A stretch of 64,000 nucleotides of DNA from Parasphingopyxis sp. (lineage in GTDB: Bacteria; Pseudomonadota; Alphaproteobacteria; Sphingomonadales; Sphingomonadaceae), in assembly GCF_052168275.1 (NCBI RefSeq), contig NZ_JBQLZM010000135.1:2509-66508 (forward strand), in the 5' to 3' direction. The number at the start of each line of letters is the position of its first letter. Position 1 is the first letter of the stretch. The notes under the pieces are model-generated. The model made no database searches. It had not been told where the DNA came from and saw only the letters and a program-made list of their open reading frames with translations. Positions 12,047 through 36,834 of this stretch are shown piece by piece. The translations under genes and the position numbers were made by a program.

Positions 12047-13015
12047 ATGGCCGAAACGCATCGCACCAAAATGCTCATCCTCGGATCGGGCCCCGCGGGG
12101 CTTTCTGCCGCGATCTACGCCGCCCGCGCCGGCATGGAACCGATCGTCGTGCAGGGCATCGAGCCCGGCGGCCAGCTGACGACGACGACCGAGGTCGAGA
12201 ATTATCCGGGATTCGCCGACATCATCCAGGGCCCATGGCTCATGGAACAGATGCAGAAACAGGCCGAGAATTGCGGCGCGCGGATGATGTGGGACAGCAT
12301 CGTCGAGGTCGATCTCTCGAAACGGCCGTTCCGGATGAAGGGCGACGGCGGCGACGAATATGTCGGCGACGTGCTGGTCATCGCGACGGGCGCCCAGGCG
12401 CGCTGGCTGGGCCTCGACAGCGAGACCGCGCTGCGCGGGAAGGGGCTTTCGGCCTGTGCGACCTGCGACGGCTTCTTCTTCCGCGGCAAGAAAATCGCGG
12501 TGGTCGGCGGCGGCAATACCGCGGTCGAGGAAGCGCTCTATCTCACCAATCACAGCGACGACGTCACCCTGATCCATCGCCGCGACGAATTGCGGGCCGA
12601 AAAGGTGCTGCAGGACCGGCTGTTCGCCCATCCGCACATCACCGTGCTGTGGGACAAGACTGTGGACAAGTTTGTGGGCGGCGGCGATCCGGAAGGGCTG
12701 GTCGCGATCGATCTCAAGGACACGAAGACCGGCGAGATATCGCAGATTCCGGCGGAAGGCGGTTTCATCGCCATCGGCCACGACCCGGCGACGGAACTGT
12801 TCCGGGGTCATCTCGAGCTCGACGAGGACAATTACATCAAGGTCGAGCCCGGCAGCACGCGGACGAGCGTTCCGGGCGTGTTCGCCTGCGGCGATGTAAT
12901 GGACAAGGTATACCGGCAGGCCGTCACGGCTGCCGGCACTGGCTGCATGGCCGCGCTCGATGCGGAAAAATTCCTCGCCGAGGCCGAATTCGAGTCCGAG
13001 CTGGAAACCGCCTAG
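12047..13015 (+). CDS. trxB: Thioredoxin reductase
   Basis: GSGPAG, GGQLTTTTEVENYPG, SACATCDG, VVGGGNTAVEEA, VFACGDV. Confidence 0.97.
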   Translation: MAETHRTKMLILGSGPAGLSAAIYAARAGMEPIVVQGIEPGGQLTTTTEVENYPGFADIIQGPWLMEQMQKQAENCGARMMWDSIVEVDLSKRPFRMKGDGGDEYVGDVLVIATGAQARWLGLDSETALRGKGLSACATCDGFFFRGKKIAVVGGGNTAVEEALYLTNHSDDVTLIHRRDELRAEKVLQDRLFAHPHITVLWDKTVDKFVGGGDPEGLVAIDLKDTKTGEISQIPAEGGFIAIGHDPATELFRGHLELDEDNYIKVEPGSTRTSVPGVFACGDVMDKVYRQAVTAAGTGCMAALDAEKFLAEAEFESELETA

Positions 13016-13827
13016 AAGGTCTCTTCGAAACGTCGGAGCGCCGCCAGACAACTGTCCCTGAGCTGATCGAAATCGCCGTCGCGGGCGAAGCTGTGGGCAT
13101 CGGTGTCGATGACGTCGCGGCTGAACCGGGCCTCGCCGGCAAGCGGCGCGAGCGCGCCTTTGCGCCATTCGTCGTCGAAACCGATGGCCGTGGCGTCATC
13201 CTTGGCCAGCACGATGTGGCCCGGCGCCGCCGACGCCGCAAGCGCCTCCGCCACGCGCTGGGCGAGACTCCCCTCGCTGCGCCGCGGTTTCGCGATCTTG
13301 AGCAGGCCGGCGATGGCCTTCCGATAGTCGATTCCGCCGGTCAGCAGCCGTTTCCAGCCCCCGAAACTGAGCAGCTGGTCGCGATAGTGGCTCTTGATGG
13401 CCGCCGGTGGCGGCTCGTTCGCCGCCGCTTCGACGACCCAGGGATTGGCGAGGATCATGGCGTCGACGCCGCATTGGCGATGGTGGAGGCACAGCGTCGT
13501 GGCGCCATCGCACAGTCCGAATCCGACGATATGCGCGATGTTCGGCGCCCTTTCGCGGAACGCGTCGACGGCGGCCTGCAGGTCGGGCGCGCTGGCCTCG
13601 AACCCCGGATCCTCGCCCGAACCGTCGCCGACGCCGCGCCGGTCGTAGCGCATCGCCGGATATCCGGCGTTCGCCAGCGCCGCACCCAGTTCCGCGAAGC
13701 CGCGATGCGCGCCGAACCGCGTCTGGCCGCCTCCGGTGACGATGAGCACGCCGATCGCCCTGTCCGCCGGATCCAGCGAACCCGCAAGCAGTTCATCGGC
13801 GCATTCAAAGGCGAATTGCGATCGCAT
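13012..13827 (-). CDS. Exosortase A system-associated hydrolase 1 (alpha/beta fold, Cys nucleophile)
   Basis: GGGQTRFGAHRGF, RYDRRGVGD, GFGLCDGA elbow, LANPWV, DAHSF; ATG 13827 coupled (TGATG) to upstream gene. Confidence 0.85.
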   Translation of the reverse strand: MRSQFAFECADELLAGSLDPADRAIGVLIVTGGGQTRFGAHRGFAELGAALANAGYPAMRYDRRGVGDGSGEDPGFEASAPDLQAAVDAFRERAPNIAHIVGFGLCDGATTLCLHHRQCGVDAMILANPWVVEAAANEPPPAAIKSHYRDQLLSFGGWKRLLTGGIDYRKAIAGLLKIAKPRRSEGSLAQRVAEALAASAAPGHIVLAKDDATAIGFDDEWRKGALAPLAGEARFSRDVIDTDAHSFARDGDFDQLRDSCLAALRRFEETF

Positions 13828-14522
13828 CAGCCCGTCCATTCGGCGATCCCCGCGGTCAGCGCGCCGGTCAGTTCGGCCGAGCCGCTAGGCTCGGCCCGGC
13901 GCCATAACGGCGGTCCGGCGATCCGGCGATCCGCCGCGCCATGTTCGGTCTCGAGCCGGATCGTGCTGGTGTCGGAAAGATCGGCGATATCGGCGTCGCG
14001 GACTGCAGAGGCGAGCGCGGCGCTGACCGGATAGCCGCCGAGCAGAGTGGGGCCTTCCGTAAAGACCGCCTGTTGGGCGGCGCTGTCGAAATCGGGATCG
14101 TTCAGGCTACGCGACCGGATAAGATCGCGGATCAGCCTTTTGCCCTGGACCGGGGAGAAGCGCATATGCGGCAGGCCCGGCACGACGTCGTCGAGCAGAC
14201 AGCCGCCGCGGACCGCGAATATCGCGGTCGCGGCGCAGGCCGTCGCGGCGTCATCGACGGCGTGACGCCAATCCGTCCATTGTATCGCGGCCAGCCCGGT
14301 CTCACTTTCTCCGGTGCCGGGCAGGTCCGGCAGATGCGTCGCGACGCCGCTGTCGGCGAGCGCCCGCATCAGGTCGGAAAGCAGTTTGCGCGTCCGGTTC
14401 AGTTCCTCGAACAGGGGCGGCACGATCAGCAGCTGGCTGGCCTCCGCCGGGCCGAAGCTCATCATGGGATGCGCCGCACCCCGCGATTCATAGAACGAAA
14501 ATCGCGGGACGGGGGGCGTCAC
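13827..14522 (-). CDS. Exosortase A system-associated hydrolase 2-like protein
   Basis: PPLFEELNRTRKLL, DLPGTGES, W..W, AVRGG at the elbow position, LGGYPVS; paired with hydrolase 1. Confidence 0.75.
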   Translation of the reverse strand: MTPPVPRFSFYESRGAAHPMMSFGPAEASQLLIVPPLFEELNRTRKLLSDLMRALADSGVATHLPDLPGTGESETGLAAIQWTDWRHAVDDAATACAATAIFAVRGGCLLDDVVPGLPHMRFSPVQGKRLIRDLIRSRSLNDPDFDSAAQQAVFTEGPTLLGGYPVSAALASAVRDADIADLSDTSTIRLETEHGAADRRIAGPPLWRRAEPSGSAELTGALTAGIAEWTG

Positions 14523-14791
14523 CGACGCGTCTTTTGCCGGGCAAAGGCGAGGAGATTGCCGAACGTTTCGAGCATCTCGGTCTCGAACTCGTCATCCTCG
14601 ATCCAGATATCGAGCCGGTCCTCGATCTCGGTCAACAGGCCGGCAACCGCCATCGAATCCAGTTCGGGTATGGCGCCGAACAATTCGGTATCGGCATCGA
14701 AATCCGCGACCTGCGCTTCGCCCAGACCCAGGACGTCGACCAGCACCGCGCGCAGCGTCTCCTCGACCGTATCGGCGGCTTCAGATGCCAT
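14519..14791 (-). CDS. Acyl/peptidyl carrier protein
   Basis: 90 aa acidic protein, LFGAIPELDSMAV phosphopantetheine Ser motif. Confidence 0.9.
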   Translation of the reverse strand: MASEAADTVEETLRAVLVDVLGLGEAQVADFDADTELFGAIPELDSMAVAGLLTEIEDRLDIWIEDDEFETEMLETFGNLLAFARQKTRR

Positions 14792-14822
14792 GAAACTTCC
14801 CCTGCAAACCCGATGCGCCCGC

Positions 14823-15827
14823 CTAATCGCTCGAAGCGCGCCGGACAAGGCCTGAGAATTTGTGGCGGAGCAGCGGGATCCAGGCCCGCGGCTGCCGCGG
14901 ATTGTAGAGCTTGAGCGCGTATAGCGGTCGCGCCGCGTCCATCCAGTCCGCCTTGTAGGGTTCGCTGCCGGTCCCGTAATCGATGATATCCGGCTGATCC
15001 TCCTCGATCACGTGCCGGAACATCGCCTCGCTCAGGATCGACCCCGGAGAATAGGATTTGGCGCTTTCCGCATAGGCAAGCTTGTGGATGGTCGCCCGGC
15101 CATTCTCGACATGCCAGAGCTGTGCCGCGACGGGTTCCCCCTCGCGATAGGCGATGCCGAGCCGGAGCGTGCCGGCCGCCCCCTCCCTTTCCGCGAATGC
15201 CCGCATGAAGCCCCAGGACCCTTCCTCGGGTTTCCAGCTCTGCGAGTAGACCTTCCGGTAGTCCTTCCACGCCAGATCGTCGAACGCGCGATGGATGGCG
15301 ATGTCGAGATCGGCCTTTTTGGCCTTGCGCTTGACGGTCGAGCGCAACTTGCCCGGCCGCGTTTCCCAGTAACTGTCGAAACTCCTTGGCGGCCGCAACT
15401 CCCAGTTTTCGGTCGTGACCGTCCTGACGGTCTTCCACCCCGCCGCCCCGAACGCCCGTTCGATGGGCTCCGGATTCGCCAGCGGCGCGAGCTCGATCAG
15501 CGCCAGCTCCCTGAGCGCTTCGGCGATCGCGACGAGGAGCCCGTCATCTTCGCCCCTGCGGACCACGTCGAATGCCAGCGTGTACCAGCTCGCCAGCGCT
15601 TCGGCGCGCCGCGGGCCCGTCCGGCACAGGAAGAGCCAGGCAGCGGCGTCGCCGCGAAGGGCGCGAGCGACCAGCGGCGGCCTGTCGTCGCTGCCGCAAT
15701 GTTGCGACGTCATCTCGAACCATGCGATCCGGTCGTACAGGCTGGGTTGCTGGGTCCGGTCGAGCGCATCGCCGGCATCGATCATGACGTCGGCCAGGCT
15801 ATCGAATAGCTTTACGTTAACTGTCAT
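14823..15827 (-). CDS. GNAT-family acyltransferase (CelD/BcsL-like)
   Basis: LRLGIAYREGEPVAAQLW, KLAY......SPGSIL, IDYGTGSEPYKADWM. Confidence 0.8.
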   Translation of the reverse strand: MTVNVKLFDSLADVMIDAGDALDRTQQPSLYDRIAWFEMTSQHCGSDDRPPLVARALRGDAAAWLFLCRTGPRRAEALASWYTLAFDVVRRGEDDGLLVAIAEALRELALIELAPLANPEPIERAFGAAGWKTVRTVTTENWELRPPRSFDSYWETRPGKLRSTVKRKAKKADLDIAIHRAFDDLAWKDYRKVYSQSWKPEEGSWGFMRAFAEREGAAGTLRLGIAYREGEPVAAQLWHVENGRATIHKLAYAESAKSYSPGSILSEAMFRHVIEEDQPDIIDYGTGSEPYKADWMDAARPLYALKLYNPRQPRAWIPLLRHKFSGLVRRASSD

Positions 15828-15886
15828 GACGCTATCCCGGTGATCGCTGGCCCGCCGCCCGTGGCCTCATTAGTTAACCGGAAGCC

Positions 15887-17395
15887 ATGACGAAAACCTT
15901 AAATCCCGACCCCAGACCGCTCGATCATCTGGCGTCACGCGGAACGCCGGACGCAGTTGCGCTGGTCGACAAGCAGGGCGAACTGGACTTCGCCGGGCTG
16001 GGCGCCGCGGTCGGCGCATTGGCGGCATGGCTGCTGGAGCAGGGGCTCTCCCCGGGCGACAGGGTCGCCAGCTGGCTCAACAAGACGCGCCTGGCCTGCA
16101 TGATGCCGCTCGCGGCGGCGCGCGCCGGTCTCGTGCACGTCCCGGTCAACCCGCTGCTGAAACGCGCCCAGGTCGGCCATATCCTTGCAGACAGCGGCGC
16201 GCGGCTGCTGATCGCCGGACAATCGCGGCTCGGCACGTTGGAGGACGGCGACCTGCCCGGGGACTGTATGCAGGCGCTGGAAGGCGATGCGGTATTCGAC
16301 GGGCGGGGATTGCCGCCCTCCGACGCCGATCCGGGCGACCTGGCCGCCATTCTGTATACGTCCGGCTCCACGGGGCGCCCCAAAGGCGTGATGTTGAGCC
16401 ATGCCAATATGTGGCTGGGCGCACAGAGCGTCGCACATTATCTCGGGATCGCGCCCCGGGACCGGACGCTGTGCGTCCTGCCCTTCAGCTTCGACTACGG
16501 CCAGAACCAGCTGTTTTCGAGCTGGTATGCGGGGGCTTCGGTCGTGCCGTTCGACTATCTGATGCCGCGTGACGTCACAAAGGCGGTGCGGCGTCATGAC
16601 GCCACGATCCTCGCCGGCGTGCCGCCGCTCTGGGTACAGCTGACCGAGATCGAATGGCCTGACGAAATCGCCGGAAAACTGCGGGTTCTGACGAATAGCG
16701 GCGGCAAGATGCCGGTGCCGCTGGTCCAGGCGCTGCGCGAGACGTTCCCGAACGCCGCGCTGCATTCGATGTACGGGCTGACCGAGGCGTTCCGCTCGAC
16801 GACGCTCGATCCGGCGCTGATCGACCGGATGCCGGAAAGCATCGGCACGGCGATCCCGTTCGCCGAGATCATGGTGGTTGCGCCCGATGGCGGCGAGGCG
16901 GCGCCCGGGGAGCCGGGCGAGCTCGTCCATGCGGGGCCGCTCGTAGCGCTCGGCTATTGGCGGGATCCCGAGCGGACCGCGCTGCGTTTCAGGCCGGCCC
17001 CGGACTTTTCCGACTATGGCGGCATGGCGGTCTGGTCGGGGGACACCGTCGTCCGCGCCGACGATGGCTTTCTGCGGTTCGTCGGCCGCGACGACGCCAT
17101 GATCAAGAGCGCGGGCAACCGGATTTCGCCGAGCGAGATCGAAGATGCAGCCATCGAGAGCGGATTTACCGCAGAAGCCTGTGCTTTCGGGGTTGCCGAC
17201 GAGCGGCTCGGACAGGCGATCATGCTGGTCGTGCGGGGCGGGGGCGGCGACGCCGAAGACGGCCTGAAGCGCTTTCTCAAGGCCGAACTGCCCAATTTCA
17301 TGCAGCCGCGCGAGATCGTCTGGCAGGATGAATTGCCACGCAATCCGAATGGCAAGCTCGATCGCACTGAAATTGAACGGAAATGGGGCACATGA
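15887..17395 (+). CDS. AMP-forming acyl-CoA/carrier-protein ligase, exosortase A system-associated
   Basis: YTSGSTGRPKGV, SFDYGQNQL, MYGLTEAFRS, SGD, GRDDAMIKSAGNRISP, NPNGKLDR. Confidence 0.9.
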   Translation: MTKTLNPDPRPLDHLASRGTPDAVALVDKQGELDFAGLGAAVGALAAWLLEQGLSPGDRVASWLNKTRLACMMPLAAARAGLVHVPVNPLLKRAQVGHILADSGARLLIAGQSRLGTLEDGDLPGDCMQALEGDAVFDGRGLPPSDADPGDLAAILYTSGSTGRPKGVMLSHANMWLGAQSVAHYLGIAPRDRTLCVLPFSFDYGQNQLFSSWYAGASVVPFDYLMPRDVTKAVRRHDATILAGVPPLWVQLTEIEWPDEIAGKLRVLTNSGGKMPVPLVQALRETFPNAALHSMYGLTEAFRSTTLDPALIDRMPESIGTAIPFAEIMVVAPDGGEAAPGEPGELVHAGPLVALGYWRDPERTALRFRPAPDFSDYGGMAVWSGDTVVRADDGFLRFVGRDDAMIKSAGNRISPSEIEDAAIESGFTAEACAFGVADERLGQAIMLVVRGGGGDAEDGLKRFLKAELPNFMQPREIVWQDELPRNPNGKLDRTEIERKWGT

Positions 17396-18639
17396 AACCG
17401 ATCGGACCGATACCGCCGGCCTTTGCCGGCCAGCAGGGCGAACTCGAGATCGGGGGGATAGCGCTGTCGGAACTAGCCGAACGGGCCGGCCGGACGCCGT
17501 TTTTCGCGTACGACCTCGATCTGGCGACGGCGCAGGTCGAGCGGTTCCGCGCGGTGATGCCGCCCGAAATTCACCTGCATTACGCCGTAAAAGCCAATCC
17601 GCATCCTTCTGTAATACAACATCTAATGGCGATCACCGACGGGCTCGACATGGCATCGGGCGGCGAACTGGAGCGGGTGCGCGACTGTGGCGCCGATATG
17701 GCGCATGTCAGCTTCGCGGGCCCCGGCAAGCGCGATCCCGAGCTCGAACTCGCGATTTCGCTCGGCGCGACGCTCAACCTGGAATCCGAAACCGAGGCGG
17801 AGCGGGCGCTGGCGATCGGCGAACGCCTGGGCGTCACGCCGCGGCTCGCGGTGCGCGTGAACCCGGATTTCGAGCTCAAGGGATCGGGCATGAGCATGGG
17901 CGGCGGCGCCAAGCCGTTCGGCATCGATCAGGAGCGGGTGCCGGCGCTGGTCCGGTACATCCTCTCCAAAGGCGCGGATTGGCGCGGTTTTCATATCTAT
18001 TCCGGATCGCAGTCTCTCGATGCGGATGCCATCGCCGAAAGCCAGGAGGCGAGCATCGCGCTCGCGGCCGAGCTTGCGCAAGCGATCGGAGAGGCCCCGA
18101 AAAGCGTCAATCTGGGCGGCGGATTCGGGATTCCCTACACGGCCAACGACACCCCGCTCGACGTCGAGGCCGTCGGCGCGCGCCTGTCCGGGGCCTTGGG
18201 CGGTCGCGATCCCGTTCTCGCCGACACCCGGTTCATGATCGAGCTCGGGCGCTGGCTGATCGGCGAGGCGGGCGTCTATGTCGCGCGCATCCTCGACCGC
18301 AAGGCGAGCAAGGGCGCGCTGTTCCTGGTGACCGATGGCGGGATGCACCACCATCTCGCCGCATCCGGCAATTTCGGCATGGTGATGAAGCGGAACTATC
18401 CGGTGGCGATCGCCTCGCATATGGGCGAAGACGCGGTGGAGGACGCCACGGTCGTCGGCCCGCTGTGCACGCCGCTCGACAGGCTGGCCGCCGATATCGC
18501 CGTCCCGCGGGCCGAGATCGGCGACTATGTCGCGGTGTTCGCATCGGGCGCTTATGGTTTAAGCGCCAGTCCCGTAAACTTCCTGAGCCATCCGACTGCG
18601 GCGGAGATCGTGGTTAAGGGCGGAAAAATAACCATATAA
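17392..18639 (+). CDS. PLP-dependent decarboxylase (DAP/Orn decarboxylase fold III), exosortase A system-associated
   Basis: YAVKANP (PLP Lys), LGGGFG, ELGRWL, GPLCTPLD, GAYG; ATGA coupling to ligase. Confidence 0.9.
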   Translation: MKPIGPIPPAFAGQQGELEIGGIALSELAERAGRTPFFAYDLDLATAQVERFRAVMPPEIHLHYAVKANPHPSVIQHLMAITDGLDMASGGELERVRDCGADMAHVSFAGPGKRDPELELAISLGATLNLESETEAERALAIGERLGVTPRLAVRVNPDFELKGSGMSMGGGAKPFGIDQERVPALVRYILSKGADWRGFHIYSGSQSLDADAIAESQEASIALAAELAQAIGEAPKSVNLGGGFGIPYTANDTPLDVEAVGARLSGALGGRDPVLADTRFMIELGRWLIGEAGVYVARILDRKASKGALFLVTDGGMHHHLAASGNFGMVMKRNYPVAIASHMGEDAVEDATVVGPLCTPLDRLAADIAVPRAEIGDYVAVFASGAYGLSASPVNFLSHPTAAEIVVKGGKITI

Positions 18640-18656: not shown

Positions 18657-18748
18657 CCTTTCCGGTGCATGACGCATCCGAGAAAGGGCCAGAATCCCCG
18701 CGCGTTTTGCGGAGGATGACGTCATCGGCCCGGAAAAAGAAGGGCCTG

Positions 18749-19390
18749 ATGATGCGCGTCAAATCAACGAAGATTGCCTTTTGCATGGGCGTTTCCGCCT
18801 TCGCCCTGGCCGGTTGCGCCGGCGGTTCGGGGCAGGAACTGCCGCCGGCTTCCTTCGTCAGCACCAACCAGGGGCCGGGCGAGGAATATGTCATCGGCCC
18901 GCTCGACCAGCTGACCATTTTCGTCTGGCGCAATCCGGAGCTTGGCGCCGAGGTACAGGTGCGGCCCGACGGCCGGATCACGACGCCGCTGATCCAGGAC
19001 ATGGTCGCCGTCGGCAAGACGCCGGCGATGCTCGCGGACGATATCTCGGTCATGCTCGCCCAGTACATCACCGAGCCGCGCGTGTCGGTGATCGTCAACG
19101 AATTTTCGGGCACCTACGCCCAGCGGGTCCGGGTGATCGGCGCCACCGAAGAGCCCGCCTCCATCCCGTACCGGGCCAATATGACGCTGCTCGACGCGAT
19201 GATCGCGGTCGGCGGCCTGTCCGAATTCGCCGCGGGCAACCGCGCCCGCCTCGTCCGGCACGACCGGACGACCGGCGAGCAGCGCGAATATGACCTGCGC
19301 ATTTCGAGCTTGCTGCGGCGCGGCGATACGACGGCGAACGTCGATCTCCAGCCCGGCGACGTGATCATCATCCCCGAAAGCATGTTCTGA
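18749..19390 (+). CDS. Polysaccharide export lipoprotein (Wza/OPX family), XrtA system
   Basis: Lipobox ALAGC, YVIGPLDQLTIFVW, VRPDGRITTPLI, SLBB domain, LQPGDVIIIPES; start 18749 or 18752. Confidence 0.9.
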   Translation: MMRVKSTKIAFCMGVSAFALAGCAGGSGQELPPASFVSTNQGPGEEYVIGPLDQLTIFVWRNPELGAEVQVRPDGRITTPLIQDMVAVGKTPAMLADDISVMLAQYITEPRVSVIVNEFSGTYAQRVRVIGATEEPASIPYRANMTLLDAMIAVGGLSEFAAGNRARLVRHDRTTGEQREYDLRISSLLRRGDTTANVDLQPGDVIIIPESMF

Positions 19391-19436
19391 TCGAACGCGC
19401 CCCGGCCATCCATTCGCGAAAGGCGACGACCACGAC

Positions 19437-20984
19437 ATGAACGGCATCTACGAAGAAATCAGGATCGCACTGCACGCGATCTGGCAGCGCCGCTGGCTCG
19501 CACTGGCGGTCGCCTGGGGCGTCGCCGTACTGGGCTGGCTGGTGATCGCGATGATCCCGAACAGCTACACCTCGCAGGCGCGGATCTACGTACAGCAGGA
19601 TTCTGTGCTGACCAACGAGATCGGCGTCACCGGCCGCGAGCAGCGCGCGAATATCGATCGCATCCGCCAGACGCTGGCGTCGACCGCCAATCTCGAGCAG
19701 GTCGTCCGCCAGACCGATCTCGCGCAACAGGCAACGACCGACGCGCAGGTGCGGTCGCTCGCGTCGCAGCTGCGTGCGAACGTGACGGTGGCGGCACAGC
19801 AGGATCCCAACAGTTTCGGTCAGCCGGGCAACATGTTCGAGATCAGCGCCAGCTGGGACGGGCCGGGGCTCGCCCAGCAGATCAACCAGAAGCTCATCGA
19901 CGTCTTCGTCGAGGAGAATCTTGCCGGAACGCGCGCCGAAGCGACGCAGTCGGTCGAATTTCTCGATCGCCAGATTGCCGAGCGCGAACAGCGACTCCAG
20001 CAGATGGAAGAACGCCGCGCGAACTTCGAAAGCGAATATAGCGGCCTGCTGCCCGGCACCGGGACGATCACCCAGCGCATGGAGCAGGCGCGGTCCGAAA
20101 TGCGCACGATAGAGGGCGACCTTGCCGCCGCGCAAAGCTCGCTGTCCACGGTCCAGGCGCAACTGGGCGCGACGTCGCCCACGACCAGCGCCGCAGACGG
20201 CGGCGCGGTGGCAGTGGGACCGGCGACCGCGCGACTCAATGCGCTTCAGGCCCAGCTCGCCGATGCGCGGTCGCGGGGCTGGACCGACCAGCATCCCGAC
20301 GTTGTCGCGTTGGAATCTCAGATTGCGCGCGCCCGTACACAGGCGCGCGGAGAGCGTGGAGGCGGGTCGCGAACCGTCGGAGGCGTCTCGAATCCGCTCT
20401 ACACGTCGCTGCGCTCGATAATGGCCGATCGCCAGGCCCAGGTCGCCGCCCTGACGGCACGGCGCGATCAGCTGCGCGCCGGCATCGAACAGATCGAGCG
20501 CCAGCGCTCGAGCAATCCGGGCCAGATGGCCGAACTCCAGCAGCTCGATCGCGATTATCTCGCGCTCCAGACCCAGTACAACCAGCTCGTCGCCGACCGC
20601 GAACGCGTGCGTCTGCGCGGCGATGTCGTCACCGAAACTGACAGCAACACCTTCCGCGTCGTCGATCCGCCCAGCATGCCGAGCGCGCCCGCCGCGCCGA
20701 ACCGGCCGCTGCTGCTGATCCTCGTCCTGTTCGCCGCGATCGCCCTGGGTATCGCAGCCGCGTTCGCGCAAGGGCAGCTCAAGACCACCTATCCGACCGC
20801 CCGGCGGCTCGGCAGCGGCACCGGCCTGCCGGTGCTCGGCGCGATCAGCGAAATCGTGAAGCCAGTCGATGCCGAGATCCGCCGGCAGAATTTCCGGCGC
20901 TTTGCGGCAGGCACCGCCGCCCTGTTCGGCGTGTTCGTCGTTCTGATGGCGGTCGAATTCATCCAGCGCGGCCTGGCGGCCTGA
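19437..20984 (+). CDS. Polysaccharide chain-length determinant (Wzz/GumC/PCP), XrtA system
   Basis: Two TM helices flanking long coiled coil, WTDQHPDVV, FRVVDPPSMP..P..PNR. Confidence 0.88.
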   Translation: MNGIYEEIRIALHAIWQRRWLALAVAWGVAVLGWLVIAMIPNSYTSQARIYVQQDSVLTNEIGVTGREQRANIDRIRQTLASTANLEQVVRQTDLAQQATTDAQVRSLASQLRANVTVAAQQDPNSFGQPGNMFEISASWDGPGLAQQINQKLIDVFVEENLAGTRAEATQSVEFLDRQIAEREQRLQQMEERRANFESEYSGLLPGTGTITQRMEQARSEMRTIEGDLAAAQSSLSTVQAQLGATSPTTSAADGGAVAVGPATARLNALQAQLADARSRGWTDQHPDVVALESQIARARTQARGERGGGSRTVGGVSNPLYTSLRSIMADRQAQVAALTARRDQLRAGIEQIERQRSSNPGQMAELQQLDRDYLALQTQYNQLVADRERVRLRGDVVTETDSNTFRVVDPPSMPSAPAAPNRPLLLILVLFAAIALGIAAAFAQGQLKTTYPTARRLGSGTGLPVLGAISEIVKPVDAEIRRQNFRRFAAGTAALFGVFVVLMAVEFIQRGLAA

Positions 20985-20997
20985 GGGGACGGGAACG

Positions 20998-21906
20998 ATG
21001 AACAAGCACAGCTCCATCCGCTCTTCCGGCTCGCTGCTCGAGCGCGCGTCGGAGAAATTCGACTTCGCGGCCGCGTTGCGCGGCGCGGCGACCGAATTTC
21101 CGGCCGAAAACACGGCACCGGCCCTCGATGCCGCGCCATTCGCGGCCCCGGTCGCGCCGCCGCCGGCCTTCGATCGCGAAACGGTCGCGGTCGACCGCGT
21201 CGCGCTCGCCGAAGCCGGCTTCGTGCTGCCCGATCAGCGCCCCGGGCCGCTCGCCGAGGAATTCCGCATCGTCAAGCGCCAGCTGCTGCTGCGGGCCGCG
21301 GGCGAGGGCGGCCGGCCGATAGAAAATGGCCGGATGATCCTCGTCTGTTCGGCGCAGCCCGACGAGGGCAAGACTTTCTGCTCGATCAATCTCGCCCTTT
21401 CCATGGCGCGCGAAACCGATCTCGACATCGTCCTCGTCGACAGCGATCTCAACAATCCGGAGATCGCCGTCACGATGGGTATCGAGGACGGGCCGGGCCT
21501 GATGGATGCCGTGGCGGATCCCGCCATCGCCATCGAATCCTGCCTGGTGCGGACCGACATTCCCAATCTTTCGCTGCTGCGCGCGGGCCGGCGGACGGAT
21601 GACGCCACCGAATTGCTGGCGTCGCAGCGGACGAGCGAGGTCATCGGCGCGCTTCTCTCCGCAAGTCCGACGCGGATCGCGATTTTCGATTCGCCGCCAG
21701 CGCTCTCGGCCTCGCCCGCATCGGTGCTCGCCATGCATGCCGGACAGACTGTTCTCGTCGTCAAGGCGGACTCCACGAGCGAAGCGGAGCTGCGCGAAGC
21801 GCTCGGGCTGCTCGACGGCTGCGATCACATTCAGCTGCTCCTCAACGGCGTCACCTTCACGCCCAACGGCAAGCGGTTCAGCAGCTATTACGGATACGGG
21901 GAATGA
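20998..21906 (+). CDS. Stand-alone BY-type tyrosine autokinase
   Basis: EEFRIVKRQL, Walker A SAQPDEGKT, VLVDSD, IFDSPP, C-terminal Tyr cluster SSYYGYGE. Confidence 0.88.
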   Translation: MNKHSSIRSSGSLLERASEKFDFAAALRGAATEFPAENTAPALDAAPFAAPVAPPPAFDRETVAVDRVALAEAGFVLPDQRPGPLAEEFRIVKRQLLLRAAGEGGRPIENGRMILVCSAQPDEGKTFCSINLALSMARETDLDIVLVDSDLNNPEIAVTMGIEDGPGLMDAVADPAIAIESCLVRTDIPNLSLLRAGRRTDDATELLASQRTSEVIGALLSASPTRIAIFDSPPALSASPASVLAMHAGQTVLVVKADSTSEAELREALGLLDGCDHIQLLLNGVTFTPNGKRFSSYYGYGE

Positions 21907-23540
21907 TCATGGCCAGCGTCTCAGCACGCCATCTCTGGAACAGCGCGATCGGGATCGGCGCGATCGCGATGCTCGGCCTGTCCGTGCAGGCGCAGGCGCG
22001 CACCGAAATCGCGCCCTATATCGAGGTCCAGCAGGTCCTCGACTTCGATCTCAGCAACAACGACGCGTTCGGCGATGACGTCGTCACCTACACGTCGGTC
22101 GCCGCGGGCGTGGATGCCTCGGTATCGACCCGGCGCATCGAAGTGGGCGCCAGCTACCGCTACGAGCGCCGCATCGGCTGGGGCGACGATATCGCCGACG
22201 ACGACGTCCATAGCGGCCTCGTCCGCGCGCGCGCCAATGTCACGCGCGGCCTCAGCTTCGAAGCTGGCGCGCTGGCCGCCCGCGCGCGCGCCGAGATCGG
22301 CGGCGACGGGCTCGGCTCACTGACCGGCGACAATGACAACAGCACGCAGATCTACTCGGTCTATGGCGGGCCGACGCTTTCGACCCATGCCGGCCCGCTC
22401 GAAATCGGCGCCGGTTACCGGATCGGCTACACCCATGTCGAAGACAATCTCGCGGCCAATTCCGACCCGACCCAGGCGCCGGTCGATTATGTCGACCACA
22501 CGACCTATCACCAGGCCACCGCGAGCGTCGGCATGTCGCCGGGCGAGATGCTGCCCTTCGGGTGGATCGTTTCGGGCGGTTACGAACGCGAGGATGCAAG
22601 CCAGCTCGACCAGCGCTACGAGGCCTATTACGGGCGCGTCGACGTCACCGTGCCGGTGACGCCAACGCTCGCGCTCGTCGGCGGCGTCGGTTACGAGGAT
22701 ATCGAGATCAGCCAGCGCGACGTCGTCGTCGATGCGGCCGGCAATCCGGTGCTCGACAATAACGGCCGGTTCCAGACCGATCCCAATTCGCCGCGCCTGC
22801 TCGCCTACAATGTCGACGAAGTCATCTACGACGCCGGCATCCTGTGGCGGCCCAATCCGCGTCTCGAACTCTCCGCGCGGGTCGGTCATCGCTACGATAC
22901 GACGATCTACAACGGCTATCTGAGCTATCAGGCCAGCACGTCGAGCACGGTCCAGGCGGCGGTCTACAACGAGATCAGCAGCTTCGGCCGCGGGACGACG
23001 AACACGCTGGCCGGCCTGCCGACCAGCTTCACGGTCGGCCGCAACGGATTCAGCCAGTTCAACGGCTGCGCCTTCGGTGAGGGCGGCGATGCGGGCGGCT
23101 GTTTCGACACCGGCTTTCAGTCGCTCAACGCGGCCAATTTCCGCAGCCGCGGCGGCAGCCTGGTATGGACGGGCGGACGCGGCCCGTGGAGCTACGGCCT
23201 CGGCGCCGGCTACCAGAACCGCCGCTATTTAGCGCCGACGACGAGCGCCAATTTCTCGCTCGACCGCGTGACGGACGAAGCCTTCTCGCTGCAGGCCAAT
23301 CTCGGCCGCCAGCTGTCGCCCAATTCGAGCCTCGACGGCAGCCTCTACGCCACCTGGTTCGAAAGCGGCATTCCGGGCGAAGCCGATGTGTTCAGCAGCG
23401 GCGGCTCGGCGACCTACAGCGTCGGCCTCTATCGCGGGCTCAGCGCCCAGGCTTCGGCGGGATTGTTCGCCAACGACGTCGAAGGCGAGGAAGCCGACTG
23501 GCTCGCCACGCTGCTGTTCGGCGTCCGTTACGGATTTTAG
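21903..23540 (+). CDS. Outer-membrane beta-barrel protein of PEP-CTERM/EPS loci
   Basis: Signal peptide, Gly/Tyr-rich amphipathic strands, terminal Phe (FGVRYGF), position in XrtA locus. Confidence 0.7.
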   Translation: MIMASVSARHLWNSAIGIGAIAMLGLSVQAQARTEIAPYIEVQQVLDFDLSNNDAFGDDVVTYTSVAAGVDASVSTRRIEVGASYRYERRIGWGDDIADDDVHSGLVRARANVTRGLSFEAGALAARARAEIGGDGLGSLTGDNDNSTQIYSVYGGPTLSTHAGPLEIGAGYRIGYTHVEDNLAANSDPTQAPVDYVDHTTYHQATASVGMSPGEMLPFGWIVSGGYEREDASQLDQRYEAYYGRVDVTVPVTPTLALVGGVGYEDIEISQRDVVVDAAGNPVLDNNGRFQTDPNSPRLLAYNVDEVIYDAGILWRPNPRLELSARVGHRYDTTIYNGYLSYQASTSSTVQAAVYNEISSFGRGTTNTLAGLPTSFTVGRNGFSQFNGCAFGEGGDAGGCFDTGFQSLNAANFRSRGGSLVWTGGRGPWSYGLGAGYQNRRYLAPTTSANFSLDRVTDEAFSLQANLGRQLSPNSSLDGSLYATWFESGIPGEADVFSSGGSATYSVGLYRGLSAQASAGLFANDVEGEEADWLATLLFGVRYGF

Positions 23541-23574
23541 GGAAAGCGCGTAAACGCGTTCGAAGGAAAGACAT

Positions 23575-24771
23575 ATGTACAGCGAACATTACGGCCTGAC
23601 CGGAAACCCGTTCCAGCTCACGCCCGATCCGCGCTTCTGGTTCGAAAGCGAAACGCACAGAAAGGCGATGGCCTATCTCGGCTATGGCCTGGCGCAGGGC
23701 GAGGGCTTCATCGTCATCACCGGCGACATCGGCGCGGGCAAGACGACGCTGGTCGGCCATCTGATGGCGACGATCGATACGTCGCGGCTGACCGCCGTGC
23801 AGATCGTTTCCACCCAGGTCGAGGGCGACGACATGCTCCGCCTCGTCGCGCAGCAGCTCGGCATCGAGGCCCATGGCCTGGAAAAGGCCGCGCTGCTCGA
23901 TCGCATCGAGCGTTTCCTTCACGGCCAGGCGCGGGAAGGGAAGCGGACGCTGCTGATCGTCGACGAAGCCCAGAATCTTTCCGTTTCCGCGCTCGAAGAG
24001 CTGCGCATGCTGTCCAATTTCCAGTCGGCCGGCCGCGCGCTCCTCCAGATATTCCTGCTCGGCCAGCCCGAGTTTCGCGACCGGGTCCGCACGGCGCCCA
24101 ATCTCGAACAGCTGCGCCAGCGCGTCATCGCGACGCATCATCTCGATCCGATGCAGGCGAACGAGATCGAACCCTATATCGTGCACCGGCTGTCGATCGC
24201 CGGATGGACCGGCAAGCCGCAATTCACCGCCGGCGCCCATGCCTCTATCTACAAGGCCACCGACGGCGTGCCGCGCCGCCTCAACACGCTGATGGCGCGC
24301 GTGCTGCTGTTCGGCGCCGTCGAGGATCTCGAAACGATCGATGGCGATGCCGTCGAGGCGGTTCTCGCGGATCTGGCCGGGGACCAACCGCAACGGCATG
24401 CCGACGCGCGGGACGACGAAGCGGACGGGCAGGGCATCGATCATGATCCCGATCCGGAACCGGCACCCGTCTTCGAACCGGCGACCGACGAGGACGTCTA
24501 TGCGTCGCTGGCGGCGACCGAGCATCGCGCGGACGAGCCGTCCAAGGAGACGGTCCGGCTGGAGACTCCCGTCCGGCCTCCGGAAAACGCCAATGACGCG
24601 GCGGCCATGGCCGACGAGCGAAACGATGCCGACGCGCGTATCGCCGCGCTCGAAGCCCGGATCGACGAACAGGAAGCCGCGCTGCGCCGCGTCTTGACCT
24701 TGCTCGTCCAATGGGTCGAGGAAGAGGACACGCAGCCGAGTTTCGGCGTCGTTCGCGGCGACGCGGCCTAA
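23575..24771 (+). CDS. ExeA/GspA-like AAA ATPase, XrtA system-associated
   Basis: YGLTGNPFQLTPDP, GDIGAGKT, LLIVDEAQNL, GQPEF, GVPRRLN; acidic linker and C-terminal coiled coil. Confidence 0.88.
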   Translation: MYSEHYGLTGNPFQLTPDPRFWFESETHRKAMAYLGYGLAQGEGFIVITGDIGAGKTTLVGHLMATIDTSRLTAVQIVSTQVEGDDMLRLVAQQLGIEAHGLEKAALLDRIERFLHGQAREGKRTLLIVDEAQNLSVSALEELRMLSNFQSAGRALLQIFLLGQPEFRDRVRTAPNLEQLRQRVIATHHLDPMQANEIEPYIVHRLSIAGWTGKPQFTAGAHASIYKATDGVPRRLNTLMARVLLFGAVEDLETIDGDAVEAVLADLAGDQPQRHADARDDEADGQGIDHDPDPEPAPVFEPATDEDVYASLAATEHRADEPSKETVRLETPVRPPENANDAAAMADERNDADARIAALEARIDEQEAALRRVLTLLVQWVEEEDTQPSFGVVRGDAA

Positions 24772-24798
24772 CACAGCGCGAGGAGGAAATGGCGCGCC

Positions 24799-25644
24799 AT
24801 GCTCAATGCGCTTTCGGTCGATATCGAAGACTGGTTCCAGGTCGGCGCCTTCGAAACCGTCATCGCGCGTGACGAGTGGGACGCGCTCGCGCATCGCGTC
24901 GAGCGCAACAGCGATGCCGTACTCGAACTGTTCGACCGCGCGGGCGTCAAGGGCACCTTCTTCACCCTAGGATGGGTCGCCGAGCGCTATCCGGCGCTGA
25001 TCCGGCGGATCGCGGAAGCTGGACATGAAGTCGCGAGCCATGGCTGGGACCATCGGCGCGTCTTCACCATGCAGCCCGACGAATTTCGCGCCGACATCCG
25101 CAAGGCGCGCGCAGCGCTCGAAGACGCGGCCGGTGAACGGCTCTCCGGTTACCGCGCGCCCAGTTTCTCGATCGATGTGCGGACGCCCTGGGCGCATGAG
25201 ATTCTCGCGGAAGAGGGCTATACCTATTCCTCGAGCGTCGCTCCGGTCGTCCACGACCATTATGGCTGGCCGGACGCGCCGCGCTTCGCCTTTGCGCCGT
25301 GCGACGATAGCGCGCTTATCGAACTGCCGGTGACGACCGCGCGCCTTGGCGGCCGCACGATCGCGGCCGGCGGCGGCGGTTTCTTCCGCCTCCTGCCTTA
25401 TCGCTTTTCCCATTGGGCCATCGGCCAGGTGAACGGCCGGGACGGCCGGCCGGCGATATTCTATTTCCATCCCTGGGAGATCGATCCCGACCAGCCGCGC
25501 GTCGACAACGCGCCGCTCCGATCGAAGGTCCGGCATTACAGCCGGCTGTCGGCGATGGAGGGCAAGCTCGAGCGGCTGCTCGGCGATTTCCGATGGGGGC
25601 GTGTCGATCATGTCGCCGAAATGCAGAAGGCGAGCATCCAGTGA
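24799..25644 (+). CDS. Polysaccharide deacetylase, XrtA system
   Basis: LSVDIEDWFQV, TFFTLGWVAE, HEVASHGWDH, GYRAPSFSI, FYFHPWEIDP. Confidence 0.9.
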   Translation: MLNALSVDIEDWFQVGAFETVIARDEWDALAHRVERNSDAVLELFDRAGVKGTFFTLGWVAERYPALIRRIAEAGHEVASHGWDHRRVFTMQPDEFRADIRKARAALEDAAGERLSGYRAPSFSIDVRTPWAHEILAEEGYTYSSSVAPVVHDHYGWPDAPRFAFAPCDDSALIELPVTTARLGGRTIAAGGGGFFRLLPYRFSHWAIGQVNGRDGRPAIFYFHPWEIDPDQPRVDNAPLRSKVRHYSRLSAMEGKLERLLGDFRWGRVDHVAEMQKASIQ

Positions 25645-26708
25645 ACGCACCCATGTCGCTCCACAAACTGCGCATACGCGCCGCCGATCTGCACGATCCC
25701 GGGGAATGCGCGCGGATCGAGACTTTCGTCCGCGAAACCGAAGGCGGGACGCCGTTCCATCTGCCGCAATGGCTGAAGGCCGTCGAACGGGGATGCGGCC
25801 AGCCGGGTCACATGCTGGTCGGCGAACGCGCCACCACGTTGCGCGGGATATTGCCGCTCACCGAAATCCATTCGCCGCTGTTCGGCCGAGCGCTCGTGTC
25901 GAGCGGCTTCGCGGTCGGGGGCGGGGCGCTCGTCGCCAATCCGATCAACGCGAATGCGCTGGCCGACGCCGCGTGGCAACTGGCCGAACGGCTCAGCATC
26001 CCCGAGGTCGAGCTGCGCGGCGGCGCGCTGCCCAAGGCATGGGTTGTCCGCGAGGGCGTCTATGCCGGGTTCGTCGGGCCGCTGGCCGGGAGCGACGACG
26101 CGCAGCTCCAGGCGATACCCCGCAAGCAGCGGGCCGAAATCCGCAAGGCGCTGACGAACGATCTCACCGTCGAATTCGGAACGGACGAGCGCGATCGCGC
26201 GGCGCATTATGCCGTCTATGCCGAGAGCGTCCGCAATCTCGGAACGCCGGTCTTTCCGCGCGCGCTGTTCGACGCGATGCTCGACGGGTTCGGCGACGCG
26301 GCCGATATCGCGACGGTTCGCCATGACGGGACGCCCGTCGCGTCGGTCCTGACCTTCTATTTCGACGGCACGGCGATGCCCTACTGGGGCGGCGGCACCT
26401 TCGCCGCGCGCGGCCTGCGGGCGAACGAGCTGCTCTATTTCAGCCTGATGAACCACGCCCGCGAACGCGGCTGCGCGCGATTCGATTTCGGCCGCTCCAA
26501 GATCAGGACGGGACCGTACAACTTCAAGAAAAATTGGGGCTTCACGCCCGAACCGCTGCGCTATGCGGTCCGGACCGCGGGCGGTGCGACGCCGCGCGAA
26601 ATGAATCCGAACGACCCGAAATACCGGCTGCAGGTCGCCCTGTGGCAGCGGCTGCCCCTGCCGATCGCCAACCGCGTCGGGCCGTGGATCGCGAAGGGGC
26701 TCGGTTGA
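25641..26708 (+). CDS. FemAB-related protein, XrtA/PEP-CTERM system
   Basis: TPFHLPQW, RKQRAEIRKA, VRNLGTPVFP, PYWGGG, NELLYF, FDFGRSK..TG...FKKNWGF; GTGA coupling. Confidence 0.88.
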   Translation: MNAPMSLHKLRIRAADLHDPGECARIETFVRETEGGTPFHLPQWLKAVERGCGQPGHMLVGERATTLRGILPLTEIHSPLFGRALVSSGFAVGGGALVANPINANALADAAWQLAERLSIPEVELRGGALPKAWVVREGVYAGFVGPLAGSDDAQLQAIPRKQRAEIRKALTNDLTVEFGTDERDRAAHYAVYAESVRNLGTPVFPRALFDAMLDGFGDAADIATVRHDGTPVASVLTFYFDGTAMPYWGGGTFAARGLRANELLYFSLMNHARERGCARFDFGRSKIRTGPYNFKKNWGFTPEPLRYAVRTAGGATPREMNPNDPKYRLQVALWQRLPLPIANRVGPWIAKGLG

Positions 26709-27949
26709 TGGGCGATATCCTCTTTCTCGCCCATCGCATCCCCTATCCACCCGACCGCGGGGACAAGATCCGGTCTTTCAACATCCTGAAAAAGCTCTGC
26801 GACCTCGCCACCGTGCATCTCGCGACGTTCGCGGATGACGATGCGGATATGGCGCACGCCGAAGCGCTCCGCCCGATGCTGGGATCGCTGCATGTCGAAA
26901 AACGCACGGTGTCCAAAGCGGTCGGCGGCATCCGGGCGATGCTGTCCGGAAAGCCGATTTCGCTGACGCTGTTCGACAGCTCCGAAATCCGCGATTTCGT
27001 GTCGCGGACGCTGGCAACCGAATCGATCGACACGGTGTTCGTGTTCTCCGGGCAGATGGCGCAATTCGTGCCCGATCTCCCGCCGGGCATCCGCTTCGTC
27101 ATGGATTTCGCGGACGTCGATTCGGCGAAATTCGCCTCCTACGCGCAGTCGAGCCAGGTGCCGATGCGCTACGTCCATGCCCGGGAAGCGCGCAAGCTCG
27201 CCGCGTTCGAGACGGAGACGGCAAGGCGGGCGGATGCGAGCCTGTTCGTCAGCGAGGCGGAGGCCGCGCTGTTCCGGCGCGAGGCCGGTCTCGGCGCCGA
27301 GCGGGTCCGCGCCCTCGAAAACGGGATCGATTGCGCCTTTTTCGATCCCGGCGCCGAAATTCCCGCCATCGAACGGCCGGACGGTCCGCTGGTCGTCTTC
27401 ACAGGACAAATGGATTACCGGCCCAATGTGGAAGCGGCCGCGAGTTTCGCCGACGACGCTCTGCCGATCATCCGCCTGCAGAACCCGCATGTCACATTCG
27501 CGATCGTCGGGCGCAACCCGACCGGCGAGGTGGAACGGCTCGGCAGCCGCGACGGCGTGATCGTCACCGGCGGGGTCGCGGACATCCGCAGCTGGCTGGC
27601 GGCCGCCGATGTCGTTGTCGCGCCGCTGCGGATCGCGCGCGGGATCCAGAACAAGGTGCTCGAAGCGATGGCGATGGCCCGGCCCGTGATCGCCTCCCGG
27701 CCCGCCTTCGAAGGCATCGACGCCACGCCCGGCCGCGATCTGCTCGTGGCGGACACGCCCGGCGAGGAGGCGCAGCTGGTCCTCGAGCTGCTGAGCAACA
27801 GCCCGATGGGCGAGGTGATGGGCCAGGCGGCGCGCAAGCGCATGCTCAAACGCTATGTCTGGGACGAGACTCTGGCGCCGCTCGCGGCGCTGACCGGCCG
27901 CGAACGGACGACCTATCGGAAGCTGAAGCTGGTCGAGACTTCCGGATGA
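26708..27949 (+). CDS. GT4 glycosyltransferase, PEP-CTERM/XrtA system
   Basis: HRIPYPPDRGDKIRSF, DVDSAKF..YA, FTGQMDYRPNVEA, GIQNKVLEAMAM. Confidence 0.9.
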   Translation: MGDILFLAHRIPYPPDRGDKIRSFNILKKLCDLATVHLATFADDDADMAHAEALRPMLGSLHVEKRTVSKAVGGIRAMLSGKPISLTLFDSSEIRDFVSRTLATESIDTVFVFSGQMAQFVPDLPPGIRFVMDFADVDSAKFASYAQSSQVPMRYVHAREARKLAAFETETARRADASLFVSEAEAALFRREAGLGAERVRALENGIDCAFFDPGAEIPAIERPDGPLVVFTGQMDYRPNVEAAASFADDALPIIRLQNPHVTFAIVGRNPTGEVERLGSRDGVIVTGGVADIRSWLAAADVVVAPLRIARGIQNKVLEAMAMARPVIASRPAFEGIDATPGRDLLVADTPGEEAQLVLELLSNSPMGEVMGQAARKRMLKRYVWDETLAPLAALTGRERTTYRKLKLVETSG

Positions 27950-29484: not shown

Positions 29485-29490
29485 ACCGCC

Positions 29491-36739: not shown

Positions 36740-36834
36740 CAATACACCGTGTCTTCGTACACGGGTTCGCCGCCCGCATAGGTGGTCGCGCAGGCCGCGA
36801 GGGTCAGCAGCAGCGCCAGTCCGAAAAAGCGCAT
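36739..36834 (-). CDS. 31-aa micro-lipoprotein (MRFFGLALLLTLAAC-ATTYAGGEPVYEDTVY)
   Basis: AGGAAGG SD 5 nt before ATG, type II signal peptide with lipobox, TGATG overlaps at both ends; not listed as its own ORF in the track. Confidence 0.6.
   Translation of the reverse strand: MRFFGLALLLTLAACATTYAGGEPVYEDTVY

Follow-up and report, generated by a model that had tools for sequence, protein, structure and literature searches.

A six-gene carrier-protein cassette beside an exosortase A locus in Parasphingopyxis comprises two modules, one of them a candidate source of beta-alanine

Introduction

What is a small carrier-protein assembly line doing beside an exosortase A (XrtA) locus? The question is raised by six genes at 13012-18639 of a 64,000-nucleotide stretch of DNA from Parasphingopyxis sp. 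(contig NZ_JBQLZM010000135.1), hereafter the window, which encode an adenylating ligase, a pyridoxal 5'-phosphate (PLP) decarboxylase, an acyl carrier protein (ACP), a Gcn5-related N-acetyltransferase (GNAT) and two alpha/beta hydrolases. The first-pass annotation of this DNA had taken them for a Dlt-like line dedicated to the exosortase system, carrying a new substituent. Based on active-site residues and on the gene content of related genomes, we propose, with a confidence somewhat above even, a different division of labor. The ACP, ligase and decarboxylase (the supply trio) would make beta-alanyl-S-ACP for pantothenate and coenzyme A (CoA), and the other three proteins would pass the same group to an exosortase-linked acceptor. 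New here are the test of the aspartate decarboxylase PanD across Sphingomonadales, the deletion series, the split of the cassette into two modules, a fusion of the two hydrolases and the observation of an arginine at the nucleophile elbow of one of them.

The six-gene cassette

The genes were called by open reading frame (ORF) finding with a third-position GC filter, together with family scans (NCBIfam and Pfam). The cassette is real, and its features are as follows.

13012..13839, minus strand: hydrolase 1 (TIGR03100, 208.9 bits, cut-off 168.45)
13827..14522, minus strand: hydrolase 2, 231 aa (TIGR03101, 46.3 bits, cut-off 202.75)
14519..14791, minus strand: stand-alone ACP, 90 aa from the ATG at 14791 (PF00550, PP-binding, 23.6 bits)
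14823..15827, minus strand: Acetyltransf_6 "GNAT", 334 aa (PF13480, 73 bits)
15828..15886: divergent intergenic spacer of 59 bp between both operons
15887..17395, plus strand: ligase (TIGR03098, 624.5 bits, cut-off 592.35)
17383 or 17392..18639, plus strand: PLP decarboxylase (TIGR03099, 548.2 bits, cut-off 478.45)

The arrangement described in the first-pass annotation was confirmed in every part, with GNAT, ACP, hydrolase 2 and hydrolase 1 on the minus strand and the ligase and decarboxylase on the plus strand, upstream of export genes. The ligase stop and the decarboxylase start form an ATGA overlap at 17392-17395 if the decarboxylase begins at 17392. On the other strand, the ACP and hydrolase 2 genes share a GTGA overlap, the genes of hydrolases 2 and 1 overlap too, and the ACP ORF is readable from 14848. 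The 59-bp spacer is presumably a shared promoter region; a promoter and terminator scan gave nothing above chance, and the spacer has no sigma-70-like consensus. The statement that these families are catalogued as exosortase A system-associated also held, as TIGR03098, TIGR03099 and TIGR03100 were matched over their cut-offs, with hydrolase 2 below that of TIGR03101.

The ligase, the carrier protein and the decarboxylase

The family assignments and the active-site residues of the cassette proteins are supported by homology. The ligase belongs to TIGR03098, scoring over the curated cut-off and adjoining a TIGR03099 decarboxylase. Its best single-domain match in the Protein Data Bank (PDB) is VinN, which also ranks first in a search restricted to the pocket region. 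LgrA was considered as the closest relative and rejected; its 285 bits are the sum over two A domains (124 + 159), which leaves VinN as the best single-domain relative. Alignment to the VinN structure (3wv4) places Asp203, Ser271 and Arg303 of the ligase at VinN Asp230, Ser299 and Arg331. These three residues, with Ser or Thr in the middle, recur in almost all of some 100 ligase homologues from several classes, and two other positions lining the pocket differ from VinN (Tyr to Asn and Lys to Phe). In VinN, the aspartate binds the amino group and the serine and arginine bind the alpha-carboxylate of an aspartate-like substrate, whose beta-carboxyl is the one offered for activation (PMC7756342, PMC12186527). 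The ligase is thus of the VinN/AfcQ type and is predicted to activate L-aspartate at the beta-carboxyl for attachment to the ACP. The suggestion in the first-pass annotation that an amino acid or a diacid is loaded on the carrier is thereby narrowed, the conserved residues pointing to an amino-dicarboxylic acid.

The phosphopantetheine serine of the ACP lies in a D-S-M motif, and D-S-x was kept in all 86 homologues examined. The ACP gene adjoins the ligase and decarboxylase genes in nearly every locus examined.

The decarboxylase is a member of TIGR03099. Its best solved relative is BtrK, matched over the full length in the PDB search with 269 bits (E 5e-79), against 156 bits for the best diaminopimelate (DAP) decarboxylase. 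The PLP lysine is Lys70, invariant in 114 homologues. Similar to BtrK, VinO and AfcP, the enzyme is predicted to turn aspartyl-S-ACP into beta-alanyl-S-ACP, and it is the constant adjacency of the ACP gene that suggests its need for an ACP-tethered substrate. The earlier idea that the decarboxylase makes an amine gains support in the form of an on-carrier decarboxylation, to which the excess of the BtrK score over those of the DAP decarboxylases points.

We give very little credence to a reading with no carrier chemistry, in which an ordinary acyl-CoA synthetase stands beside a paralogue of DAP or ornithine decarboxylase that takes a free amino acid as its substrate. The NCBIfam label "acyl-CoA ligase" and a match of the decarboxylase to the LysA model (227 bits) speak for it. 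It conflicts with the ACP gene that accompanies the pair, with the conserved Asp, Ser and Arg recognizing an amino acid, and with the far higher score of BtrK; in addition, a separate true LysA is encoded elsewhere in the host genome.

Occurrence of PanD and the supply of beta-alanine

The host genome, a 2.9-Mb Sphingomonadales genome, has panB and panC. No pyruvoyl PanD, PLP-dependent PanP-type enzyme or AmaB-type beta-alanine synthase was found over cut-off in it, the search leaving aside the transaminase and polyamine-oxidation routes. Most alpha-proteobacteria, Sphingomonadales among them, have PanB and PanC without an aspartate decarboxylase, and beta-alanine synthase is mostly lacking as well (PMC7142369). 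Published tables for Sphingomonadales list PanB and PanC as present, the aspartate decarboxylase (ADC) as absent and beta-alanine synthase as mostly absent (PMC7142369), so that the source of beta-alanine in this order is an acknowledged gap.

Two samples were used to compare the supply trio with PanD. The order sample comprised 201 Sphingomonadales genomes; hydrolase 1 was sought across the whole of each genome, the GNAT and hydrolase 2 within the loci examined. The phylum sample comprised 401 genomes. PanD here means the pyruvoyl aspartate 1-decarboxylase (TIGR00223). The decarboxylase family TIGR03099 was found over cut-off in 112 of the 201 order-sample genomes. PanD occurred there in one family only (f4, 33 of 45 genomes) and in none of the 74 genomes of family f1. 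In the phylum sample, 202 of the 401 genomes had PanD. Outside Sphingomonadales, TIGR03099 was matched over cut-off in 14 genomes, only one of which (G253) has PanD as well. A complementary pattern was also seen within families. In family f55, the trio is present in three genomes (G227, G238 and G472), all without PanD, and the four genomes with PanD (G321, G459, G506 and G508) have no trio match at E <= 1e-100. Family f61 has the trio in G447, G537 and G578, all without PanD, and PanD in G429 and G562. In genus g101, a trio-like set below cut-off is found in G387, which lacks PanD, and PanD in four other genomes. Four sub-cut-off trio matches coexist with PanD; these may be secondary-metabolite versions. 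The complementarity of the trio and PanD, like the modularity described below, is supported by comparative genomics.

The PanD pattern also bears on the choice of substrate. Loading of L-glutamate by its gamma-carboxyl would give 4-aminobutyryl (GABA)-S-ACP, as in butirosin biosynthesis. BtrK, the only solved relative of the decarboxylase, uses gamma-glutamyl-ACP, and the Tyr to Asn and Lys to Phe differences from VinN could fit a longer chain in the ligase pocket. We nevertheless regard a GABA product as quite unlikely, because the VinN/AfcQ-type members that have been tested take aspartate or 3-methylaspartate and the anticorrelation with PanD points to beta-alanine. The butirosin GABA intermediate is protected by a gamma-glutamyl group that the ATP-grasp enzyme BtrJ adds, and a query for the ATP-grasp partner that the GNAT has in other classes found no ATP-grasp gene in the host genome. 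The preference for aspartate over glutamate is therefore based on the type of the ligase and on the PanD pattern, as the sequence of the decarboxylase does not discriminate between the two.

Distribution of the cassette and its division into two modules

About 50 Sphingomonadales loci share the layout hydrolase 1, hydrolase 2, ACP and GNAT, divergent from ligase, decarboxylase and export genes. In beta- and gamma-proteobacteria the same families are clustered in shuffled orders, often near an AsnB-like amidotransferase or PrsT. The arrangement is far beyond chance.

The cassette and the XrtA block of the window lie between two flanks, trxB and truA-fmt-recR, of which trxB and truA-fmt served as markers for a series of deletions in related genomes.

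12047..13015, plus strand: trxB (thioredoxin reductase), left flank
18665..31389, plus strand: XrtA/PEP-CTERM locus (NCBIfam matches)
31386-32129, minus strand: truA, right flank, followed by fmt and recR

XrtA was found in 55 of 74 genomes of family f1 and in 41 of 45 genomes of the sister family f4, and hydrolase 1 in 54 of 74 and 0 of 45, respectively. Members of f4 (such as G003, G021 and G035) have XrtA and PanD and lack the ligase, the decarboxylase and hydrolase 1; exosortase A systems therefore evidently work without the cassette. Conversely, TIGR03099 is retained in 14 complete f1 genomes that have no XrtA. Hydrolase 1 is missing from 12 of these, one has a truncated copy and one represents a partial deletion. 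At seven of the 14 sites the genes read trxB-ACP-ligase-decarboxylase-truA-fmt, and the remaining sites hold a few remnants, namely an ATPase, an amidotransferase, and hydrolase 2 with a truncated hydrolase 1. Because the hydrolases, the GNAT and the XrtA genes occupy three different intervals, three separate deletions sparing the trio are needed to reach this state, which is the pattern that purifying selection on the trio alone would produce. Hydrolase 1 was rarely found outside genomes that have both XrtA and the trio. The cassette thus consists of two modules, a supply module (ACP, ligase and decarboxylase) and a transfer module (GNAT and hydrolases 1 and 2). Since hydrolase 1 is nearly restricted to such genomes, the transfer module most likely passes the thioester made by the supply module to an acceptor linked to the exosortase.

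These distributions argue against the dedicated function that the first-pass annotation had assigned, in which all six genes form one Dlt-like tailoring line acting on exopolysaccharide or on exosortase-cleaved C-termini, with no role in primary metabolism. The attachment of the cassette to the XrtA locus here and in its relatives, the clustering of the families with XrtA-system genes (amidotransferase and PrsT) in other classes, the NCBIfam names and the sugar-transfer-associated ATP-grasp and polysaccharide deacetylase genes that adjoin elsewhere are all consistent with such a line. It leaves unexplained why the trio is kept after loss of XrtA and the other three genes, why the XrtA-positive family f4 has PanD and none of the cassette, and why the trio and PanD tend to exclude each other throughout the phylum; nor do the six genes include a counterpart of DltB or DltD. 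Therefore, we consider a single dedicated line unlikely.

The transfer module

Hydrolase 1, the "Cys-hydrolase" of the first-pass annotation, has the nucleophile elbow G-L-C-D-G and a Cys110-Asp215-His249 triad, which is conserved across 55 Sphingomonadales sequences and nine loci from other classes. It is a member of TIGR03100, with a score over cut-off and the hydrolase 2 gene overlapping its own; a PDB sequence search returned generic alpha/beta hydrolases only. The triad is the signature of a thioester intermediate, and hydrolase 1 is proposed to be a thioester-forming transferase. A main role as a thioesterase freeing beta-alanine was considered and rejected, as the genomes reduced to the trio are precisely those that have lost hydrolase 1.

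Hydrolase 2 falls short of the TIGR03101 cut-off, with 231 residues against a profile of 266 positions. Profile comparison with a canonical member of 285 bits (locus L115) gave an hhalign value of 97.7% and an E-value of 2e-12. The protein shares the motifs EE(M/L)N..R and G-x-R-x-G with canonical members and occupies the same place beside hydrolase 1. By these profile, motif and synteny comparisons, hydrolase 2 is assigned as a diverged, shortened TIGR03101 orthologue. The AlphaFold2 (AF2) model of hydrolase 2 (pLDDT 95.9) has a strand at residues 100-104 followed by a helix from residue 105, and a fold search with it found generic alpha/beta hydrolases (esterases and lipases), which is silent on function. 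Neither protein has the G-x-S-x-G elbow of serine hydrolases; the serine is replaced by Cys in hydrolase 1 and by Arg105 in hydrolase 2. This arginine is invariant in every class examined. An arginine elbow without a conserved histidine was found in every TIGR03101-lineage protein examined (that of the window and homologues from loci L113-L124), so that the family name "hydrolase" is probably a misnomer. In locus L124 (6005-7846), hydrolases 2 and 1 are fused into one protein of 613 aa, and the two therefore probably work as a pair. Hydrolase 2 is probably a non-catalytic partner of hydrolase 1.

The cysteine triad also calls to mind an iterative, AfcQ-like ligase whose product, an oligo-beta-alanine or a small amide metabolite, would be released by the Cys-hydrolase. 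AfcQ, AfcK and AfcP build (beta-Ala)n chains and AfcL off-loads them with a Cys/His/Asp triad; in other classes, amide-forming ATP-grasp and AsnB-like enzymes adjoin the cassette. We consider such a product improbable: the fatty-acyl ligase, desaturase and export genes typical of such clusters are absent, the trio-only loci have no off-loading enzyme, and the complementarity with PanD is left unexplained.

For the GNAT, no sequence relative was found in the PDB search. Its AF2 model (pLDDT 94.8) gave as top Foldseek matches FemX (E 7e-13, TM-score 0.64), Sba18/Sbb17 and the synthase domain of MprF, with E-values from 7e-13 to 2e-10 at a sequence identity of 13-17%. Sba18 and Sbb17 are aminoacyl-tRNA-dependent peptide synthases solved in complex with streptothrisamine, and the MprF match is an aminoacyl-phosphatidylglycerol synthase domain. 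As judged from the model, the GNAT is a tandem-GNAT protein with the FemX-type aminoacyl-transferase fold and not a simple acetyltransferase. The FemAB-family protein in the same XrtA locus is distantly paralogous to it. The exosortase-linked N-acyl amino acid synthases of Craig et al. 2011 are, we presume, of another GNAT type than this Acetyltransf_6 protein. In locus L115 (12320-14644), an ATP-grasp domain is fused to the Acetyltransf_6 GNAT (774 aa), and in locus L124 an ATPgrasp_ST gene (PF14397, "sugar-transfer associated") overlaps the start of the GNAT gene. A query of the L115/L124 type found no such ATP-grasp partner in the host genome. The hand-over by the Cys-hydrolase or the GNAT envisaged in the first-pass annotation is plausible and fits the near-restriction of hydrolase 1 to genomes with XrtA and the trio.

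Proposed pathway

We propose the following sequence of reactions. The VinN/AfcQ-type ligase would adenylate L-aspartate at its beta-carboxyl and attach it to the holo-ACP. The BtrK/AfcP-type PLP enzyme would then strip the alpha-carboxyl on the carrier, giving beta-alanyl-S-ACP. In a host without PanD, the trio is a probable source of beta-alanine for pantothenate and CoA, and it is this probable role that would let it persist after loss of the exosortase locus. Where the transfer module is present, it would use this same beta-alanyl-S-ACP for a function linked to exosortase A, most likely attaching the amine-ended beta-alanyl group, by way of a Cys-thioester, to a polysaccharide or to some other acceptor in the envelope. 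Cys110 of hydrolase 1 would carry the acyl group, and the Arg-elbow hydrolase 2 may hold an anionic partner. The acceptor could be a de-N-acetylated sugar, a lipid or a protein. We infer the identity of the substrate, the release of free beta-alanine and the nature of this acceptor from the family assignments and the comparative pattern.

Several points weigh against this proposal. The trio-only loci have no evident enzyme for the release of beta-alanine. A route that forms beta-alanine on a phosphopantetheinyl carrier depends on its own end product, since holo-ACP is made from CoA, and such circularity is unusual in primary metabolism. The complementarity also has exceptions, as G253, from another class, has both PanD and the trio. 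Neither gene set was found in five f1 genomes (G125, G137, G152, G172 and G183) or in genus g58, so that further routes to beta-alanine must exist. The relatives compared are not independent and no phylogenetically corrected test was applied, and hence no P-value is given for the anticorrelation of the trio and PanD. BtrK itself is the L-glutamyl-[BtrI ACP] decarboxylase and acts on glutamyl-ACP, so a GABA product is compatible with the sequence alone. The FemX fold could equally mean that the GNAT takes its donor from aminoacyl-tRNA. Finally, a literature search found no biochemistry or functional proposal for the six families.

A bolder version, which we hold to be a long shot, gives the transferred group a role in sorting itself. 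A beta-alanyl or short oligo-beta-alanyl amine, borne by an exopolysaccharide or lipid carrier, would resolve the acyl-enzyme that exosortase A forms with PEP-CTERM proteins, and the same pathway would also supply the beta-alanine of CoA in PanD-less Proteobacteria.

With the two-module proposal, four families long catalogued as "exosortase A system-associated", with no function assigned to them, gain a testable chemistry, from aspartate to beta-alanyl-S-ACP. The trio becomes a candidate for the missing beta-alanine step in alpha-proteobacteria that bear PanB and PanC and lack ADC. If true, a carrier-protein-dependent route would enter the biosynthesis of vitamin B5 and CoA, and the annotation would be corrected in thousands of genomes. 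The GNAT, the Cys-hydrolase and the Arg pseudo-hydrolase would then be the part truly tied to exosortase A, which narrows the search for a product or acceptor of the sorting system.

Genomic context

The window has a GC content of about 67%. Among named relatives, a Parasphingopyxis metagenome-assembled genome comes nearest at this locus, and its decarboxylase is 84% identical. The first export gene of the XrtA locus begins 25 nt past the decarboxylase. From there the order is export protein, chain-length determinant, Tyr kinase, outer-membrane protein, ATPase, polysaccharide deacetylase, FemAB-family protein, glycosyltransferase, XrtA-EpsI and AsnB-like amidotransferase, with XrtA itself at about 28018-29484. 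The single glycosyltransferase of the locus (18665-31389) is of the stp1 type, and the remaining polysaccharide genes must therefore lie elsewhere. Within 1-45 kb of the window, the stretch that was annotated, neither a PEP-CTERM substrate gene nor a PrsK/PrsR/PrsT regulator was recognized. For two ORFs farther downstream, 36561-38327 (plus strand, 588 aa) and 38216-39400 (minus strand, 394 aa), NCBIfam gave no match; because they overlap on opposite strands, probably no more than one is a genuine gene. At 41816-44083 (minus strand), a ChvG-like sensor kinase and its response regulator also give sub-cut-off matches to the kinase and regulator models of the "proteobacterial dedicated sortase system".

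Comparison with known carrier systems

Similar to the cassette, the Dlt system has an ANL ligase that loads an amino acid on a small carrier for a cell-envelope polymer. In contrast to the cassette, Dlt involves no decarboxylation and relies on the MBOAT protein DltB and on DltD. DltA is distant from the ligase, with NF003417 scoring 146.6 bits against a cut-off of 476 and the PDB search giving 127 bits. As DltA is distant and DltB and DltD have no counterpart here, Dlt is not the right model, and the parallel drawn in the first-pass annotation is better replaced by AfcQKP, VinNLO and BtrIJK.

In BtrJ/I/K, CtaD/E/F and FlvN/L/O, a stand-alone carrier is loaded through the side-chain carboxyl and alpha-decarboxylation follows on the carrier (PMC11350588). 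The same logic of loading and then decarboxylating holds for VinN/VinL/VinO (PMC11284099). In vitro, AfcQ/AfcK/AfcP convert L-aspartate to beta-alanyl and oligo-beta-alanyl carrier thioesters (PMC12186527). AfcQ loads L-aspartate by the beta-carboxyl and has an arginine in its pocket, and AfcL (Cys/His/Asp) takes over the chain as a thioester and off-loads it to an amine (PMC12186527). The chemistry of the cassette thus appears to be a variant of a known carrier-tethered aspartate decarboxylation, and an ordinary one in its distribution.

Butirosin biosynthesis offers in BtrK the closest solved relative of the decarboxylase, and its product ends on the amine of an amino sugar, the kind of acceptor envisaged for the transfer module. 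It differs in its substrate, glutamate, in loading by the ATP-grasp enzyme BtrJ, and in its BtrH transferase and BtrG deprotection, which are of other folds than the cassette proteins. Vicenistatin biosynthesis has in VinN the best solved relative of the ligase, with Asp230, Ser299 and Arg331 common to both, and the same triads of proteins are seen in FlvN/L/O and BolO/BolC/BolN. VinN prefers 3-methylaspartate, and the Vin pathway adds alanyl protection (VinM), hand-over to a polyketide synthase (VinK) and deprotection (VinJ), families of which none is present in the cassette. The Afc system of Burkholderia, which makes the lipopeptide AFC-BC11, combines like the cassette a VinN-type adenylating enzyme, a stand-alone carrier and a PLP decarboxylase. 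The Afc cluster belongs to secondary metabolism and has a fatty-acyl ligase, KAS III-like transferases and oxidoreductases, whereas the cassette has a FemX-fold GNAT and a pair of alpha/beta hydrolases, stands in an exosortase/exopolysaccharide context and tracks the absence of PanD.

Fem-type transferases share the tandem-GNAT fold with the GNAT of the cassette and transfer an aminoacyl group, activated as an ester, to an acceptor amine or hydroxyl. FemX/FemABX, Sba18/Sbb17 and MprF use aminoacyl-tRNA, whereas it is the gene context that would point to aminoacyl-ACP as the donor of the GNAT. An amine nucleophile for exosortase A would be analogous to the pentaglycine bridge that Fem enzymes build and sortase A uses. 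For the supply module, the closest functional counterpart would be PanD. PanD is a single pyruvoyl enzyme acting on free aspartate, whereas the trio route would be PLP-dependent, ATP-consuming and carrier-bound, and the two share no homology. Nevertheless, the proposed net reaction, aspartate to beta-alanine, is the same, and the distributions of the two are complementary.

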